From a bacterium (GTDB lineage Archaea; Thermoplasmatota; E2; JACPAO01; JAHFTW01), in the NCBI GenBank assembly GCA_040390065.1, contig JAZJZE010000003.1, positions 30,239 through 94,238 of the forward strand: a stretch of DNA of 64,000 nt. Direction: 5' to 3'. The notes below the pieces were generated by a model. The model ran no database searches, was not told the origin of the DNA, and worked only from the letters and a program-made list of their open reading frames with translations. Shown here piece after piece: positions 1,460 through 64,000 of this stretch. The position numbers and the translations under genes are program-made. How positions within the stretch are numbered: the stretch's first letter is position 1; the number at the start of each line of letters is the position of its first letter.

Positions 1460-3136
1460 ATGACGAATGGAAGCACAAGCACCGGACAACCGATCTACAT
1501 CCTGAAGGAAGGCACCGAGCGCACCCGCGGCCGCACCGCCCAGTCGAACAACATCTACGCCGCACGCCTCATCGCGGAGACCGTCAAGTCCACCCTCGGC
1601 CCCCGCGGCATGGACAAGATGCTGGTCGACTCGATGGGTGACGTCGTCATCACGAACGACGGCGCGACCATCCTCAAGGAGATCGATGTCGCGCACCCGG
1701 CGGCCAAGATGGTCATCGAGGTTGCAAAGACGCAGGACGCCGAATGCGGCGACGGCACGACGACGTCCGTCATCCTGACCGGCGAACTGCTGAAGCAGGC
1801 TGGCGAGCTCCTCGAGAAGGGCATCCACCCGACGACAATCACGGCCGGCTACCAGCTCGCCGCCAAGGAGGCCCTCAAGGTCCTCGCCTCGATCGCCATC
1901 CCCGTCAAGAAGACGGACATCGCGACCCTGCGCCAGATCTCGAGCACCAGCCTGAACTCGAAGAACATCTCCTACAACTCCGAGCTCATCTCGGACATCG
2001 TCGTTCGCGCCTGCACCTCCGTGATGGAGACCCAGGGCACCGGCAAGGACGCCGAGACCACCGTCGACATCGCCGAGAACATCCTTGTGCAGAAGGCCAA
2101 GGGCGGCAGCCTCGAGGACACCGAGCTCATCCAGGGCATCATCCTGGACAAGGAGCGCGTCCACACCGGCATGCCGACGAACGTCAAGAACGCGAAGATC
2201 GCCCTCGTCAACGCGGCCCTCGAGATCAAGAAGACCGAGGTCGACGCCAAGATCGAGATCACGGCCCCCAACCAGCTGTCCGCCTTCCTGGAGCAGGAAG
2301 AGAAGACGCTGAAGGACATGGTCACGAAGGTCGTCAAGTCCGGCGCCACCGTCCTCATCACCCAGAAGGGCATCGATGACCTCGCCCAGCACTACCTCGC
2401 CAAGGCCGGCATCTACGCGGTGCGCCGCGCCAAGAAGTCGGACATGGAGAAGCTCGAGAAGGCAACGGGCGCCACCATCGTCAACACGCTGGACGACCTC
2501 ACGGCCTCCAACCTCGGCAAGGCCGGACTCGTCGAGGAACGCAAGATCGGCGAGGACAAGTTCACCTTCGTGACCGAGTGCCCGTCCGCCAAGGCCGTGA
2601 GCATCCTGCTGCGCGGCGGCACCGAGCACGTCGTCGATGAGGCCGAGCGCGCCATGCACGACGCACTCTCCGTCGTCGCGGTCGCCCTCGAGGACGGCAA
2701 GATGACGCCCGGCGGCGGCGCGGCTGCAACCGAGATCGCCTTCCGCCTGCGCGAGTACGCGACGACGGTCGGCGGCCGCGAGCAGTTGGCCGTCGAGGCC
2801 TTCGCGGAGTCCGTCGAAGTCGTCCCGCGCACGCTCGCCGAGAACGCTGGCCTGGACGAGCTCGACATCCTGTTGAACCTGCGCCGCGCCCACAAGAAGG
2901 GCGAGAAGAACGCCGGCATCAACGTCTTCACGGGCAAGATCGAGGACATGGTCGCAAACCACGTCATCGAGCCGCTGCGCGTCGGCACCCAGGAGATCAA
3001 GGCTGCCACCGAGGCAGCCGTCATGATCTTGCGCATCGACGACGTCATCGCGGCGAAGTCGTTCTCCGGCGGCGGCGCCGGCGGCCCAGGCGGCGCGGGC
3101 GGAATGCCCGGCGGCATGGGCGACATGGATATGTGA
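1460..3136 (+). CDS. ths: Thermosome (group II chaperonin) subunit
   Basis: [35 protein letters not shown] motifs; GGM C-terminal tail; GGTGA ribosome-binding site upstream. Confidence 0.98.
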
Positions 3137-3345
3137 AATTCGCGAGCGCAACGAGCGACTTTCACATGAGCCGGCGCGAAGCGCCGGCGGACCCTGCGGT
3201 TCGGCGTCAGCCGGACCGCAGGGGTCGAGCCGACGCGCCGCAGCGCGTTGGCGGACCACGACGGAACGCGTCGGCTGCCCAGCGGACGGTGCGCAGGCCC
3301 CCCCGCCCTCCCGGCACCGGCGCGAAAACCTGGTGTGCGAAGCGC
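3131..3345. repeat. Cluster of consecutive hairpins (REP/BIME-like) after the thermosome gene
   Basis: ATGTGAAA/TTTCACAT (3131-3167), GCCGGCGC-GAA-GCGCCGGC (3170-3188), GACCCTGCGGTTCGGC/GCCGGACCGCAGGGGTC, AGCCGACGCG/CGCGTCGGCT. Confidence 0.6.
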
Positions 3346-43242: not shown

Positions 43243-46200
43243 ATGCAGGACGGCGACGCCTGGGACCTCGAGGCCATCACGGCGAAGTGGCAGGAGCGCT
43301 GGTGGAAGGCCGGCATCCACAAGGCGGACCGCCGCGGCGAAGCGCCCTGGATCGATCCGAAGGGGATTGCGCCGAGCCGCGGCGAGGCGCACGGGTCGCC
43401 GAAGGCGGCCGCCGAACGGTTGCCCGATGCGCCGAAGGCGCCGGGCAAACGTTCGTACTTCATCCACTTCGCTTACCCCGGAATCTCCGGGTTCCTCCAC
43501 GTCGGCCACATGCGGGGCTTCACCTACACGGACGTCTTTGCCCGCTACAAGCGCATGACGGGCCACAACGTGCTGTTTCCGGCCGGGTTCCATGCATCGG
43601 GGATTCCGGCCGTGGCCTTTGCCGCCGAGGTCAAACGCGGCGAGAAAGACGATTACCTGCGCGCCAACGGCTACACTGGCACCATCGCGAAGCTTGCTGA
43701 CCCAAAGGCGGTCGTCGACTACTTCGCGCACGTCTACACCAACGATTACTGGAAGAAATTCGGCTTCCTCATCGACGAGCGCCGCAACTGCACTACCATC
43801 GACCCGGCGTACTCCAAGTTCATCCAGTGGCAGTTCCGCGCCCTCAAGGCCAAGGGCTACCTCATCGAGAAGCCGCATTACGCGCCATTTTGCCCGGTGT
43901 CGGGCCCCGTCGCCGTGGACAAGTCGGAGACCGACATCAAGCAGGGCGGCGGCGCCGAGATCATGGAGTACACGGTGCTCAAGTTCGTGCTGCCGCGCGG
44001 CACCATCCGCGACGAGCGCGTCATCGTCCCGTGCGCGACGCTCCGCCCCGAGACGGTCTACGGCTGCACAAACATCTGGATCCACCCGGACACCGAATAC
44101 CAACTCGTGCGCGTCTGGGCCGACGGCGCCGTCGCCGACGCGGATGCATCCGAGTTGTGGCTCGTGTCGACGGCAGGGCGCCGCAAGCTGGAGTGGCAGT
44201 TCGAGCGCGCCGAGGCGCTAGGTGAGCGGGTGCACGCCCGCGACCTCTTGGGCCAGAATGTGCGCTCGCCGTTGTCGCCCGAGGGCGGCAAGGAAGTCCC
44301 CATCGTGGCGGGCACGTTCGTGGACCCAGCCGTTGCTACCGGTATCGTCATGTCGGTCCCCGGCCACGCGCCCTTCGATTACGCGGCCTACCGTGACGCG
44401 GGCCTCCTCAAGGCCATCGGTGAGCCGCCGCAGATCGCGACGGTCGAGGGCTATGCCGGCCTGCCAGCGAAGATCGCTTGCGACAAGCACCACGTCCAGC
44501 ATCAGACGGACCGCGAGAAACTCGAGGCCGCAACGGAGGAGGTCTACGCGGACGAATTCAACAGGGGCGTCCTCAACGCGTCGTGCGGGCCGTACGCGGG
44601 CAAGCGCATCAAGGCCGTGAAGGACCAGATCAAGGCCGACTTCCAGGCCGACGGGTCCGCCCGCATCCTGCGGCAGTTCAGCGAACTCGTCATCTCACGC
44701 GCGGGCGAGGTCGTGGACGTCAAGCGCATCCCAGACCAGGATTTCATCCATTACGCGGACAAGGCGTGGACGGAGAAGGCCAAGGCGCACGCGGCGACCA
44801 TGGACATCCATCCGGACCGCTACAAGGACGAGATGCCCAACGTCCTCGACTGGTTCGGCGACCGGGCGTGTGTCCGCCGCGGCGCTTGGCTCGGCACCGA
44901 GTTCCCCTTCAAGCCGGGTTGGATCATCGAGCCGATCGCGGATTCGACGTTCTACCCGTGGTTCTATATCGTGCAGCGGTACGTGCGGTCGGACTGGAAC
45001 CCGGAGCCGCCCGCGGGGGGCCTGAAGCTCGAGGAGCTGACGGATGCGTTCTTCGACTTCGTCTTCAACGGCCACGGCAAGGCGGCGCGGCCCCTGTGGG
45101 ACGACGTGCGCAAGGACGTGCTGTACTGGGGCCCCGTCGACATGAACCTCGGCGGCAAGGAGCACCAGACCGTGCACTTCCCGGTGTACGTCATGAACCA
45201 AGTCGCGCTCCTGGAGGACCCGCGGTTGTGGCCGCGCGGCATCTTCGTCAACTGGTGGGTGACACAGAAGGCCGGCGCGAAAATCTCCAAGTCCAAGGGC
45301 GGAGCCGAGCCGATCCCCGGCGCCGCCCAGCGCTACGGCGTCGACGCCATGCGCCTGTACTATTGCCACGTCGGCAGCCCGCACGTCGACATCGAGTGGG
45401 ACCCGGACATCGTGATGGATTACCGGCGACACGTCGAGCGCGTGACGCGGCTTGTCGACGATTGCCTGGCGGCCTCGGGGGGGCCCAGCGACATGGACGG
45501 TTGGCTGCGCTCCGCCTTCGGCCAGTCCATCTTGGCTGCGTCGCGGGCCTACGAGGAGTCGGACCTGCGCTCCGCCGCAGGAACACTGGTCTTCGGCGTC
45601 CCTGACGTCGTGCGCTGGTACATGCGGCGCGGCGGCGCCAACCGCGAGCTGCTGCGCACGACCGTGCAGGATTGGGCCCGCGCGCTCTGCCCGATCGTGC
45701 CGCACGTGGCCGAAGAGATGTTCCACCGCGCACACGGCGACGGACTGTGCTCGGTCGCAGCATTCCCGAAGGCTCCGCCCGGTACGGCTGCAACACTCGC
45801 CGCAGAGGAGTACATGCGCGCAGTCCTCGACGACATCCTCACGGTCAAGAAACTCGCCAACGTCGACAAGATCCAAAGCTTGACGCTCTACACGACGCCG
45901 GCCTGGAAACGCGACCTTGCGGCCAAGGCCCTGGACATGGCGGCCAAGGCTGGCGGCAAGTTCCCCATGGGCGCGTTCATGGGCGACGTGATGAAGGACC
46001 CGAGGATGCGCGAGCTCGGGAAGGACGTGCAGAACTTCACGGCAAAACTGCCGTCACAGGTCACGCAGTACACGCCGCAGCAGCGGGCGTTGATCGCAAG
46101 CGGCGCCGACGAGGCGGCCATCCTTGCCCGGGCGGCACCCTTCCTCGCGGCAGAGGTGGGCGCGCCGGCGATTGCGGTGTACGCCGCGGACGACCCGGCG

Positions 46201-58366: not shown

Positions 58367-58525
58367 CCGGTGCCTTGTCGGCGACTTGCTCACGTCCTGG
58401 CCCAGGGTGTCCCCCTGGCCTGAGTCGGCCTCGCTTGGCGGCTGGCGCCGATTCCGTCCGGGACGACGAACACAACCGAGCTGGCCCGTTGCCAAAAAGC
58501 GGGTCGGCATCCACAGGTGATTCCC

Positions 58526-58954
58526 ATCCCGACAGGCATCAACGCAGCCCGCAAGCTCCAACGCAACCGGCAGACCGCCCGCTGGTCGGACCGGTACTAC
58601 TCCCGTCGCACGCTCCGCCTCAAGCAGAAGTCGGACCCCCTTGGTGGCATCCCGCAAGCCCGCGGCATCGTCATCGAGAAGGTCGGCATCGAGGCCAAGC
58701 AGCCGAACTCGGCCATCCGCAAGTGCGTGAAGGTCCAGCTCATCCGCAACGGCCGCCAGATCACGGCATTCGCGGTCGGCGACGGCGCCATCAACTACAT
58801 CGACGAGCACGACGAAGTGCTGGTCGAGGGCATCGGCGGCCGCATGGGCCGTTCCTACGGTGACATCCCGGGTGTGCGCTACAAGGTCATCAAGGTCAAC
58901 AACGTGAGCCTGGACATGCTCGTCAAGGGCAAAGTCGAGAAGCCGATGCGGTGA
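58526..58954 (+). CDS. rps12: Ribosomal protein uS12 (archaeal S12/S23); start probably ATC at 58526 (alternative GTG at 58517)
   Basis: [32 protein letters not shown]. Confidence 0.97.
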
Positions 58955-58959
58955 TTGCC

Positions 58960-59616
58960 ATGGACGACGAGATTACCACCCAGACAAACACGCCCGACCT
59001 CGAAGCCATCGCCACGGCCACCGCCACTCCGGCGGCCAAGAAGGTCGACCTCCCCGAGACCCCGGTCTTCGGCAAGTACACGAGCCGCGGCATCGAGTGC
59101 CCCGATGTCGGCCTCGCACGCTACATCAGCCTCGAAGCCATTGGTGTGATGCACCACAGCGCCCGCCACGCCAACAAGCACTTCGGCAAGACCAAGGTGC
59201 ACGTCGTCGAGCGCCTCATCAACGACCTCATGCGCAGCGAGACGTACCAGGGCAAGAAGTCGAAGGCCTACAAGGCCGTCGAGAACGCCTTCGTGCGCAT
59301 CGCCGACAAGACGAAGGAGAACCCGGTCCAGGTCCTCGTGACCGCCATCCACAACGCAGCACCCCGTGAGGAAGTCACGCGCCTGCGCTACGGCGGCATC
59401 AACGTGCCGAAGTCCGTCGACGTCGCCCCCCTGCGCCGCCTCAACGTCGCCCTGCGGCACATCGCCACGGGCGCCACGACGGCCTCGTTCAAGTCGACGA
59501 AGCCCATCGACCAGTGCCTGGCCGATGAGATCCTGAAGGCCTACAAGAACGACCCGCAGTCGTTCGCCGTCGGGAAGAAAGACGAAGTGGAACGCGTCGC
59601 GAAGTCGGCCCGTTAG
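58960..59616 (+). CDS. rps7: Ribosomal protein uS7
   Basis: VVERLINDLM, ENPVQVL, APREEVTR, VDVAPLRR, KKDEVERVAKSAR. Confidence 0.97.
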   Translation: MDDEITTQTNTPDLEAIATATATPAAKKVDLPETPVFGKYTSRGIECPDVGLARYISLEAIGVMHHSARHANKHFGKTKVHVVERLINDLMRSETYQGKKSKAYKAVENAFVRIADKTKENPVQVLVTAIHNAAPREEVTRLRYGGINVPKSVDVAPLRRLNVALRHIATGATTASFKSTKPIDQCLADEILKAYKNDPQSFAVGKKDEVERVAKSAR

Positions 59617-59814
59617 GGCCGCTTGGCCGCATGCGCGGAGGAATTTCCCCGACGGCGAACAGCCCGCGCCGCTGCGCGAAGCGGGCGGGGCGTGGCGGAC
59701 CTGCTGCCGACCGTCAGGACGGCAGCAGGGCAAGCGGAGGACGCCGCCGCGTCCTGCGCGTTCGCAGCGGGCAAGAAGGACGAGGTCGAGCGCGTGGCCA
59801 AGAGCGCCCGCTAA
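59561..59814 (+). mobile_element. 198-bp palindromic insertion at the rps7 3' end, with duplicated and synonymously recoded C-terminus
   Basis: GKKDEVERVAKSAR* is encoded twice 198 nt apart; 9 of 14 codons plus the stop differ, all synonymously; the intervening DNA is hairpin-rich. Confidence 0.8.
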
Positions 59815-59822
59815 GGCCTTCC

Positions 59823-60587
59823 ATGCCTTCACGCGCCGCGGAAATCTGCGCCGCGGTGGCCTGCCTCGTGTTGCTCAGCGGATGCGCTTCAAACACCAGC
59901 AGTTTGGGCTCCAGCCCTACGTCGGAATCCGCCGCCCCCCGAGTGGACAATCTCGAACGGGACGTCGACGTCGGCGGGGGGATCAACGCACTCCAGGGAA
60001 CGGTGGTTGTCATGGTGAGCGGAGCAGACGGAAACTTCAGCCACGGCTCCATCCGGCAGAACCTCACCTTTCGCTACGACGTGTGGAGCGACGACGGTTG
60101 GGACCTTGCCATTGCAGTCGCAGATTCGAGCGGCAATTCCTCCGCCCGGGCGGGCCTTGGACTGCGCGTGTCCTGTCGGTTGAGCGAGACGCGCTTGTCG
60201 ACGGCCAACTTCACTCGGTTCGATGGGCACGAGTCCGTCTATCGGAGCGGTGGCCCCAACGATTGCCCACTCCGGCTAGGTCGAAGTTTCCCCATCCCCA
60301 GCCAGGTCGCAAACATGAGTTCCCAAGGCCGCTGGTACGTGGCATCGTGGCTGAGAGTCGTGACGCTTCCCAGTCTCTCCAGCCCCAAAACCCTAGCCGA
60401 AGATCGCACCCAATTCAACGCGACATTCGTTGGATTCGGAAGCATTCGGCAGGCGTTCACGGCAGCCCTGGCACGAGAAGCCGGCAATGTGACGAGTCTC
60501 TTCGTGGGTGGCGTGTCGCACCAGTCTGACGGGTCGACAGAGCTCGTGATCCTCCGCGGGGAGTTCCTTTACGGCCCGCGGTCGTAG
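59823..60587 (+). CDS. Hypothetical lipoprotein
   Basis: ACLVLLSGC lipobox; atypical codon usage. Confidence 0.7.
   Translation: MPSRAAEICAAVACLVLLSGCASNTSSLGSSPTSESAAPRVDNLERDVDVGGGINALQGTVVVMVSGADGNFSHGSIRQNLTFRYDVWSDDGWDLAIAVADSSGNSSARAGLGLRVSCRLSETRLSTANFTRFDGHESVYRSGGPNDCPLRLGRSFPIPSQVANMSSQGRWYVASWLRVVTLPSLSSPKTLAEDRTQFNATFVGFGSIRQAFTAALAREAGNVTSLFVGGVSHQSDGSTELVILRGEFLYGPRS

Positions 60588-63946: not shown

Positions 63947-64000
<54 letters not shown>

Follow-up and report, generated by a model that had tools for sequence, protein, structure and literature searches.

We describe a short insert without a protein-coding gene behind rps7, the gene for ribosomal protein uS7, in a soil archaeon of the Thermoplasmatota. 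In a 64,000-nucleotide (nt) window of its genome (G000, C3:30239-94238; 'the window' refers to this whole stretch in the following), the last codons of rps7 are written twice. This double tail is probably the footprint of a protein-less cassette of ~140-200 nt, one of a family located at the 3' ends of conserved genes and tRNAs. The insertion itself and the displacement of the native rps7 tail are well supported. The family is recurrent, with the rps7 case being one member, and it is apparently undescribed in prokaryotes. G000 is a metagenome-assembled genome (MAG) of 2.68 Mb in 50 contigs with a completeness of 89%; it was compared with the other members of a set of 32 genomes from the same Thermoplasmatota family, which are MAGs of 65-94% completeness. 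Genomes, contigs and further loci are referred to by G, C and L numbers, respectively.

The end of rps7 is written twice

The gene and its two tails are located as follows:

58951..59616, + strand: rps7 (uS7, archaeal S7p/S5e type); full-length gene that has copy 1 and TAG as its end; Pfam Ribosomal_S7, E = 5.1e-44
59561..59620, + strand: S1 (copy 1), the proximal, translated end of rps7, with 17 codons, TAG and 4 nt; first half of direct repeat D1, of putatively foreign allele type
59759..59818, + strand: S2 (copy 2), the distal, untranslated end of rps7, with 17 codons, TAA and 4 nt; second half of D1, read as the displaced native tail

As seen in the sequence by the original prediction, an analysis made from the DNA alone, the two tails share 14 identical amino acids, while nine codons and the stop codon differ. 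Its claim of synonymous-only recoding holds within these 14 residues, but not over the full repeat: D1 (59561-59620 versus 59759-59818; 60 nt, 75% identity, 198 nt apart) contains 12 differing codons, of which 11 are synonymous, including Ser TCG/AGC and the stop TAG/TAA, and one is non-synonymous, a change from V to A. The corresponding peptides, each followed by the stop, are FAVGKKDEVERVAKSAR for copy 1 and FAAGKKDEVERVAKSAR for copy 2. The Ribosomal_S7 profile is matched through its last position (148/148), at rps7 residue 221, and the protein ending in copy 1 is therefore complete. Homologs of rps7 were found in 37 of 41 related genomes. When all six frames of the 2.68-Mb genome were searched for ERVAKSAR, allowing up to two substitutions, just two true copies appeared, both at rps7.

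Copy 2 is in frame with copy 1, without a further stop in between, and the MAG stems from a mixed community. These circumstances could point to an assembly artefact, in which two strains were joined, or to a second tail that is used via read-through, bypassing or RNA splicing; we find either explanation barely credible. Another contig from the probable source run (8144 nt, depth ~12), which had been assembled separately, covers positions 59350-60050 with 0 differences and no joints, which speaks against the chimera that had been named as a possible refutation; as it comes from the same sample as the MAG, it checks the assembly and is not independent biological evidence. The same architecture is also found in MAGs and contigs from many studies and assemblers. 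Against a use of the second tail, the distal copies of relatives lie in other frames, behind stops or without a start codon, and both copies encode the same residues, so that alternative use would change nothing.

The distal copy resembles a displaced native end

The expectation that copy 2 has host-typical codons and copy 1 does not was borne out: the gene body and copy 2 have similar G+C contents at third codon positions, 0.93 and 0.94, respectively, as compared to 0.76 for copy 1. The gene body uses AAG rather than AAA (17:0), GGC rather than GGG (8:0), GCC rather than GCG (21:1) and CGC rather than CGT (10:1), whereas copy 1 features AAA, GGG, GCG, CGT and, twice, GAA. An alignment of the rps7 loci of relatives, as had been suggested, points in the same direction. 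Copy 2 is like the tail of the closest relative, G004 (87% identity overall), which matches it at 41/51 positions and copy 1 at 35/51; copy 1 is nearest to the tails of two uninterrupted alleles from more distant genomes, those of G003 (48/51) and G010 (45/51), whose whole genes are 83.5% and 79.8% identical. In the three closest genome pairs, the working tails are alike at 18/24 positions, as compared to 86-90% for the gene bodies, while the distal copies agree at 20-22/24. Moreover, the distal copy of G042 equals the working tail of G017 (24/24), and the distal copies in this comparison both run on into similar downstream sequence.

The codon usage, the similarity to the nearest relative and the position of the next open reading frame (ORF) 8 nt further on, as expected for a native operon junction, support the view that the distal copy of rps7 is the displaced native end and that the working copy represents a foreign allele type. 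The original prediction of an enzyme-less element that brought a recoded replacement tail and displaced the native end thus finds support in codons, relatives and operon junction, as well as in the recurrence described below. The further idea that the element itself supplied the tail fares less well: S1 does appear to be of foreign type, but its nearest alleles, in G003 and G010, are uninterrupted and contain nothing that corresponds to the spacer. Codon usage had to be rejected as a universal criterion for the foreign copy: the contrast holds at rps7 and the acyl-CoA dehydrogenase gene, but fails at secY, NusA and COX2.

The neighboring genes are:

58517..58954, + strand: rps12 (uS12); Pfam Ribosom_S12_S23, E = 1e-45, from the ORF list, start codon uncertain
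59823..60587, + strand: downstream ORF with a lipoprotein-like signal (…LLSGC…), from the ORF list, no Pfam family

We take the signal of the downstream ORF to be a lipobox. Copy 2 ends 8 nt upstream of its ATG, and this ORF probably followed rps7 directly before the insertion. The content downstream of rps7 varies within the Thermoplasmatota family. In sister families, the gene for elongation factor 2 (EF-2) directly follows rps7 with a gap of 14-54 nt, but this is not the case in the studied genome, where it is found on another contig (G000:C43:3840-5309); in G008 and G003, it lies 769-1028 nt from rps7 and has its own TTTTAT box. At the contig end (window positions 63950-64000), we note a G run that reads as poly-Pro or poly-Gly in all frames, a typical end artefact of sequencing or assembly.

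Anatomy of the insert

Between the rps7 copies lies a 138-nt spacer without a gene; the 138-153 nt that separate the copies consist entirely of hairpins. The only ORF in the rps7 spacer is a 63-residue frame that ends in copy 2 itself. The segment 59540-59830 (291 nt) has a folding energy of -162.3 kcal/mol (z = -4.92), and none of 200 shuffled sequences was as stable. Its elements are:

59607..59620, + strand: H1 apex, GGCCC-GTTA-GGGCC, with the stop codon in the loop; from the sequence and the minimum free energy structure
59621..59660, + strand: A, the antisense arm, a degenerate reverse complement of S1; inverted repeat I3
59662..59686, + strand: H2, a small hairpin located before the core motif, its loop being of the GAAG type; inverted repeat I13
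59673..59759, + strand: conserved core module, consisting of GCGGACC, H3, GGG and then H4; covariance model R1, 62.1 bits, E = 3.9e-7, alignment A1
59700..59729, + strand: H3, a 12-13-bp hairpin with a GTCA loop, the covarying center of the core; inverted repeat I7
59738..59755, + strand: H4, AGGACGC-CGCC-GCGTCCT

The pairings listed in the original prediction are all present. The last 13 nt of A (59648-59660) are perfectly complementary to 59562-59574 (I3); the H1 arms, GGCCC at 59607-59611 and GGGCC at 59616-59620, place the TAG (59614-59616) at the apex; and the arms of the further hairpin, H3, are CCTGCTGCCG and CGGCAGCAGG at 59700-59729. The description as a palindromic insertion is only partly apt: the antisense arm and the 13-nt inverted repeat exist, but instead of a single palindrome, the insert comprises four hairpins in a row and includes a conserved core. 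Alignment of arm A gives a score of 27 with S1, as compared to 17 with S2. In other copies of the core, a small hairpin equivalent to H2 precedes GAGCGGACC, and the secY and thermosome copies have the hairpin GACGC-CGCAG-GCGTC at the place of H4. Neither Rfam 15, with 0 matches at E <= 1 in window positions 58400-60200, nor a tRNA scan of the locus recognized anything.

Two side observations concern similar hairpins elsewhere. By eye, many relatives, whether they have a cassette or not, show a short stem-loop whose loop contains the rps7 stop codon (rps7 ends of L003-L023); in these hairpins, the 5' arm is formed by the Ser-Ala-Arg codons and the 3' arm changes in step with it, as in GAGCGCCC-GTTA-GGGCGCTC, TCCGCTC-GATA-GAGCGGA and GCGCGC-TGAT-GCGCGC. 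Separately, the leucyl-tRNA synthetase gene in the window has an in-frame insert (43330-43455) with hairpins whose CGAAGG or GAAG loops resemble H2; this part of the window contains no match to the R1 core.

Extra rps7 tails in related genomes

When second tails were sought in relatives with a strict protein regular expression, the window's copy alone emerged, and the approach was discarded; blastn against the rps7 loci of 30 relatives revealed second, partial tails downstream in G004, G011, G016 and G017, as well as a partial one in G014. With a degenerate pattern scan, the working rps7 tail was found in 30 of the 32 family genomes, and eight extra tails on the same strand, 85-310 nt downstream, in seven of them (G000, G004, G011 with two, G016, G017, G042 and G046). 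The same scan gave three one-mismatch matches elsewhere, and a reversed control pattern two matches. Beyond ~310 nt, no second rps7 tail was found in any of the 32 genomes.

Across metagenome and genome collections, an extra tail is present at eight of 156 further S7 loci with a complete tail, a set that also took in Methanomicrobia, Methanocella and others. All eight positive loci fall within the studied family (62-89% identity of the query S7 to each), and two of them are new metagenome contigs, L032 with two extra copies and L037. The extra copies always include ERVAKSAR, mostly with the stop, and start 8-17 codons ahead of it; their frames vary. Accordingly, the in-frame offset of 198 nt, to which the original prediction had drawn attention, is true of the window's rps7 but not general: in relatives, the offsets are 136, 106, 101, 94 and 85, and most offsets cannot be divided by 3. 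We also rejected the possibility that distal copies are translated where they lie, as the G011 copy has no start codon and lies behind a stop, and those in G004 and G017 are in another frame.

Among the sequencing runs compared, the locus itself was present only on contigs of the probable source sample; X2 and X3 yielded short conserved stretches from relatives and X21 none, which weighs neither way. On a groundwater-metagenome contig of 452 nt from X2, a segment of 32 nt resembles the tail end at 59589-59620 with two differences and has unrelated flanks; it may be a displaced tail copy in another organism.

A conserved core at many gene ends

The rps7 spacers have a common order of elements, namely CAGCGAG, a small hairpin with a GAAG-type loop, GAGCGGACC, a hairpin of 11-13 bp and GGG. 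In an alignment of 14 core copies, 8 of the 12 pairs of H3 show compensatory double changes, and the core hairpin also occurs, with compensating changes in its stem, behind tRNA-Gly(CCC) and two other genes in G011 and behind secY in G002. The covariance model R1 found 25 copies at E <= 0.01 in 12 of the 32 family genomes, mostly in the window's genus; in G000, it detected six strong copies and one weak copy. These counts are lower bounds, since ~120-150 of several thousand first-look candidates were scored per genome. Six genomes of two sister families yielded 0 matches. All but one of the 25 copies follow a gene or tRNA encoded on the same strand, at a distance of 2-200 nt from its 3' end, the 25th (G011:C1:58401) being without an identified upstream gene. 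The targets, named in G000 according to Pfam, are:

rps7: 3 copies
secY: 3 copies
thermosome: 2 copies
SIS-domain gene: 2 copies
NusA-KH: 2 copies
stalk protein L12/P1, presumably, as judged from its GLGALFG end: 1 copy
tRNA-Gly(CCC): 3 copies
tRNA-Gly(UCC): 2 copies
tRNA-Leu(UAG): 1 copy
other genes: 5 copies (G006:C22, G043:C36, G015:C24, G011:C42 and G011:C58)

One of these copies is a second core within the window:

3165..3253, + strand: core 28 nt after the stop codon (3134-3136) of the thermosome gene; R1, 59.9 bits

The thermosome gene was recognized by Pfam Cpn60_TCP1 (2234-3133). The antisense arm of its core is short, at 8 nt (ATGTGAAA/TTTCACAT), and a distal sense copy is not clearly recognizable. 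At secY, L12, thermosome and tRNA-Gly, too, the insert is flanked by direct repeats that represent the 3' end of its target. At tRNA-Gly, the antisense of the T-arm and acceptor end is followed by the core and then by a partial sense copy.

The core is likely mobile between gene ends. An H3 of the GGCCGGCC type is found at rps7 (G004, L032), tRNA-Gly (G011) and secY (G002), while rps7 sites contain three different H3 types. Occupancy is uneven: of six genomes of the genus, secY is empty in two (G005, G011), has only arm and core in one (G002) and a double tail in three (G000, G001, G004), and a core is present at rps7 in four of 13 genomes of the genus. At tRNA genes, pairing of the arm with the 3' half of the tRNA would hinder tRNA folding, which argues for a role at the DNA level.

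These data also bear on the idea that core and arm constitute an immobile, functional RNA of the 3' untranslated region, for example a stabilizer, terminator or processing signal, and that the spare tails are by-products of recombination. The fixed orientation to the upstream gene (24/25), the preference for housekeeping and probably highly expressed genes, and the covariation of H3, which shows selection on a single-stranded fold, are all compatible with it, as is the rps7 stop-codon hairpin that many core-less relatives keep with matching changes (by eye). Nevertheless, we deem it improbable. The modules are patchy at orthologous sites, secY being empty in 2/6 genomes and the rps7 core being restricted to 4/13 of the genus; several core types occur per site and one type at several sites; and tandem arrays exist. 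Furthermore, such an RNA should harm folding when pairing with the 3' half of a tRNA, it leaves the synonymous-only spare tails unexplained, and it corresponds to no Rfam family at E <= 1.

Other doubled gene ends and their synonymous differences

The cassette type is found behind at least ten other housekeeping genes and tRNAs in the family, and recoded tails behind other conserved genes, for which the original prediction had proposed a search, were indeed detected at secY, L12, NusA, COX2, the acyl-CoA dehydrogenase gene and others. The secY gene of G000 is followed by two tandem units and a third, partial copy of 15 nt; its tails differ in 8 of 22 codons, always synonymously. The L12 tails of G005 differ over 9 codons by three synonymous and 0 non-synonymous changes, and a tail pair in G006 over 13 codons by seven synonymous changes, including the stop, and 0 non-synonymous ones. 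The thermosome tails of G002 are identical over 34 nt. In G000, the end of the SIS gene is also doubled, as seen in a nucleotide alignment near the R1 match, and a genome-wide seed search found further double tails at NusA, a GAPDH-like gene, COX2, acyl-CoA dehydrogenase, ThyX, the large subunit of replication factor C (RFC) and DnaG. As the seed required identity at codon positions 1 and 2, these pairs are unusable for synonymous/non-synonymous counts; it also missed rps7 through TCG/AGC. The GAPDH pair has 0 differences over 30 nt and the COX2 pair two. Overall, the duplicated target lengths range from 15 to 77 nt, mostly with non-identical copies.

Two further observations in G000 stand somewhat apart. 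At the end of ThyX (G000:C5:78737-78880, minus strand), a 66-nt copy of 21 codons with one synonymous difference lies 146 nt downstream, behind an 80-nt spacer without the GGACC core, which may represent a second cassette type. In addition, short direct repeats 55-200 nt apart read like a tRNA T-arm (…GSNP…) at C1:77131, C1:163676, C1:249897, C2:30276, C9:185340, C19:252 and others, which suggests that several further tRNA genes in this genome have duplicated 3' ends.

The 19 proximal-distal pairs together contain 69 synonymous and three non-synonymous differing codons, a count that is biased because many rps7 cases were found with codon-aware patterns; the pairs obtained from nucleotide alignment alone have 36 synonymous and two non-synonymous differing codons. 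If an untranslated copy decayed as fast as the synonymous sites in the working copy change, ~61% of the differing codons should be non-synonymous (P = 1.6e-12, computed for 35:2). A simple target-site duplication followed by neutral decay is therefore rejected at equal rates, and we conclude that the copies either diverged as working gene ends or that the working copy imports alleles which had already been filtered.

The antisense arm offers a second line of comparison. In 12 of 13 cases, it aligns more closely with the proximal copy, and where the two copies differ, it shares its base with the proximal one at 42 sites, with the distal one at a single site and with neither at seven, a count biased by the alignment of the arm to the proximal copy. 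In 9 of 14 cases, the outer arm boundary is no more than 6 nt away from where S2 begins, as judged from a loose gapped alignment; this coincidence is suggestive, not decisive. Together, both features would fit a unit of S1, loop, A and core whose insertion point was the base of its own hairpin, upstream of the homologous native segment.

Alternatively, only the core may have been inserted, with the target being duplicated both directly (S2) and in inverted form (A), so that S1 and S2 were the same at birth. S1 would then have been overwritten later by homologous exchange with alleles from other lineages, a process that introduces synonymous changes only, A would have been kept matched to S1 by gene conversion or hairpin selection, and S2 would be a slowly decaying fossil. 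Several pairs look young enough for this scenario (the thermosome of G002 with 34 nt and 0 differences, GAPDH with 30 nt and 0, ThyX with 66 nt and one, and COX2 with two), the alleles nearest to rps7 copy 1 are plain, uninterrupted ones (G003, G010), the outer boundaries of A and S2 often coincide, and the identity along rps7 is uneven, with G004 being 98-100% identical at alignment positions 211-300 as compared to 80-83% near the 3' end. The scenario, however, demands that the exchange tract stop within a few nt of the stop codon, beyond which donor and recipient are unlike, that recombination exceed mutation of the fossil more than tenfold (36:2; P = 1.6e-12 for 35:2 at equal rates), and that an extra process account for the match of A and S1 in 12/13 cases. 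It also has to accommodate very different cores inside one array, as in units 1 and 2 of G000 secY. For these reasons, we consider it rather unlikely.

Searches for enzymes and free forms

The IS200/IS605-type Y1 (HUH) transposase (PF01797) is found in 0 of the 32 genomes, in a search whose control was positive in 6 of 14 known genomes, and the same is true of Cas1 (PF01867; control positive in 7/14). The DEDD transposase of IS110 (PF01548) occurs in two of the 32, G012 and G022, neither of which has a core, and thus in 0 of the 12 core-bearing genomes. G000 contains six tyrosine recombinases (PF00589), on C2, C4, C5 and C11; none is located on C3 or beside any cassette in this genome, all being on other contigs or more than 140 kb away. 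Longer versions of the cassette with an integrase or nuclease gene, whose existence the original prediction had raised, were not found in the 32 genomes. On viral contigs, the first core pattern had 0 matches and a shorter one nine, none of which matches R1, so that we attribute them to chance.

A further explanation would see the repeats as attL/attR scars of large tyrosine-integrase elements whose interiors have been deleted. Direct repeats of gene and tRNA 3' ends with a partly foreign working copy are the classic signature of such elements, tRNA genes are among the targets, and G000 has six tyrosine recombinase genes. Yet all ~30 cases are short, with 55-310 nt between the copies, no distant second copy exists in the 32 genomes and no integrase lies beside any cassette of G000. 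Moreover, the interval contains a conserved, covarying core and a target-specific arm instead of a random remnant. We regard this origin as very improbable.

Comparison with known systems

The nearest published parallel is provided by gene hybrids in fungal mitochondria, which arose through mobile ORFs (mORFs) and carry a C-terminal duplication, as in atp6 of Allomyces macrogynus and in atp6, atp9, cox2 and nad3 of Glomus sp. (PMC3630166). According to the account of these hybrids given there, the mORF insert measures ~1 kb and owes its mobility to the homing endonuclease, of LAGLIDADG or GIY-YIG type, for which it codes (PMC3630166). As far as this account goes, both systems have in common that a foreign C-terminal part is present in phase while the native part is displaced and unexpressed, that the native copy matches close relatives while the inserted one does not, and that the protein is kept via mostly synonymous differences (PMC3630166). 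Set against the hybrids as described in that account, the cassette resides on an archaeal chromosome, is just 140-200 nt long, has no endonuclease ORF, and features an antisense arm, a hairpin core, arrays and tRNA targets.

Prophages, integrative and conjugative elements (ICEs) and enzyme-less cis-mobilizable elements (CIMEs) integrate at the 3' ends of tRNA and housekeeping genes and rebuild the gene end from attP, as streptococcal ICEs do at fda, rplL and rpsI. The cassette resembles these tyrosine-integrase elements in its gene-end targets, imperfect direct repeats, tandem accretion and a working end that would be partly element-derived. Integrative elements, however, are kilobases long, have or once had an integrase, and possess neither an antisense copy of the target nor a covarying core, whereas the cassette has no distant repeat in the 32 genomes and no integrase nearby in G000.

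Repetitive extragenic palindromes (REP), with the related BIME and REPIN forms, are mobilized by RAYT (Y1) transposases, and PATE are derivatives of IS200/IS605. Like the cassette, these are short, gene-less hairpin elements behind stop codons, sometimes clustered, with selection on the single-strand fold. Unlike them, the cassette occurs in genomes without Y1 (none in the 32), with one to six R1 matches per genome (a lower bound), and its arms copy the individual target, whose end is duplicated.

The integron attC and the attP of the CTX phage are single-stranded hairpin recombination sites that mimic a duplex partner. By analogy, the imperfect hairpin arms resembling the duplex target, the insertion at a fixed point, the polar arrays and an enzyme acting in trans may find their counterpart here; in contrast to these systems, there is no IntI/attI platform, with no PF00589 gene on C3 and rps12-rps7 upstream, and the arm corresponds to the target's own tail instead of a fixed core site.

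In CRISPR adaptation and casposon integration (Cas1), a target of ~15-37 bp is duplicated and new units are placed next to the leader. The polar repeat-insert-repeat arrays of the cassettes are similar, with the oldest and most degenerate repeat furthest from the 'leader', which here is the gene; Cas1, however, is found in 0/32 genomes, and the cassette repeats are non-identical as seen and differ in a coding pattern. The IS110/IS1111 elements with their bridge or seek RNA differ in that 0/12 core-bearing genomes encode the DEDD transposase. Miniature inverted-repeat transposable elements have element-specific terminal inverted repeats and a short, identical target duplication; in the cassettes, A and S2 are inverted copies of one another, yet target-specific, with A nearer to S1 (12/13), and the duplicated target is 15-77 nt long with mostly non-identical copies. 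Diversity-generating retroelements were rejected, as the third-position changes are of all kinds (G/C, A/G, C/T, TCG/AGC) and not adenine-specific, and the protein is unchanged. The cassette thus lacks the defining features of known families that were tested: an endonuclease ORF, an integrase, a Y1 transposase and Cas1. Full-text literature searches found no account of such cassettes in archaea or bacteria.

Discussion

Several observations sit uneasily with a mobile cassette that carries its own tail. The alleles nearest to rps7 copy 1, in G003 and G010, are uninterrupted, and their resemblance to the spacer does not extend past the 4 nt that follow the stop; the proximal tails of cassette-bearing genomes are not especially alike either. 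The joint transfer of tail and core is therefore a proposal. The occurrence of one core type at different targets and of several types at rps7 speaks against a fixed package of tail and core. At secY, NusA and COX2, the codons of the proximal copy are at least as typical of the host as those of the distal copy, and the arm alignment extends 8-46 nt past the start of S2 in 5 of 14 cases. Some distal copies have no 3' part or stop (G001 secY, the third copy of G000 secY and G016 rps7), for which later deletions have to be assumed. The rps7 spacer could not be found as a dispersed repeat, as BLAST detected no second copy in G000 and the structure-aware model R1 alone found related cores. No linked enzyme gene was found, the spacer having no gene, Y1 and Cas1 being absent and the tyrosine recombinases distant, nor was a free, plasmid or viral form of the cassette.

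Still, we favor the insertion of such a cassette. Its unit consists of S1 (8-22 codons and the stop), the arm A, pairing with S1 so that the stop lies at the apex, the core and often S2; within the core, the order is a small hairpin, GAGCGGACC, the covarying 12-bp hairpin, GGG and another small hairpin. At rps7, the unit would have entered in frame at ~59561, such that translation now stops in S1, the allele type of another lineage, while the native S2 would have been shifted 198 nt downstream, where it lies beside its old neighbor gene and is no longer translated. Repeated insertion would produce arrays of two to four units. The differences would be synonymous because each tail copy was a working gene end, here or in another lineage, until it was displaced. 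As to the process itself, we infer a recombination at the gene end that is addressed by the homology of the sense and antisense arms to the target. It may involve a single-stranded hairpin mimicking the duplex target, and, by analogy to attC and the CTX phage, a single-stranded circle or hairpin would yield the product. The recombinase would act in trans and could be a host or unlinked enzyme, or else host homologous recombination might suffice.

Taken further, this would amount to a class of protein-less mobile elements that carry the address in their own arms. As single-stranded hairpins, they would mimic the target or base-pair with it, be spliced at the hairpin foot by an unlinked enzyme and overwrite the gene end with a synonymous spare, such that the insertion could not cost the host its gene; a change of the arms would direct the same core to any other gene or tRNA end, in a natural, programmable 'replace-and-rescue' system. 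We put this forward tentatively, as a doubtful though not implausible extension.

If our interpretation is true, such cassettes can in practice lead gene callers and synteny analyses astray, and likewise any search for recoding or read-through. Site-finding by a gene-less element through copies of its target would then represent a novel way of choosing targets, and it might eventually become a tool for scar-tolerant insertion at chosen gene ends. For the organisms themselves, it would mean that, in a soil archaeal lineage, tiny, gene-less cassettes repeatedly overwrite the ends of essential and highly conserved genes, including those for ribosomal proteins, SecY, the chaperonin, NusA and tRNAs, while leaving the protein unharmed. 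Horizontal exchange and genome change of this kind would be invisible to gene-centered annotation, and the displaced tails would be dated fossils of earlier alleles, useful for tracing recombination between lineages.

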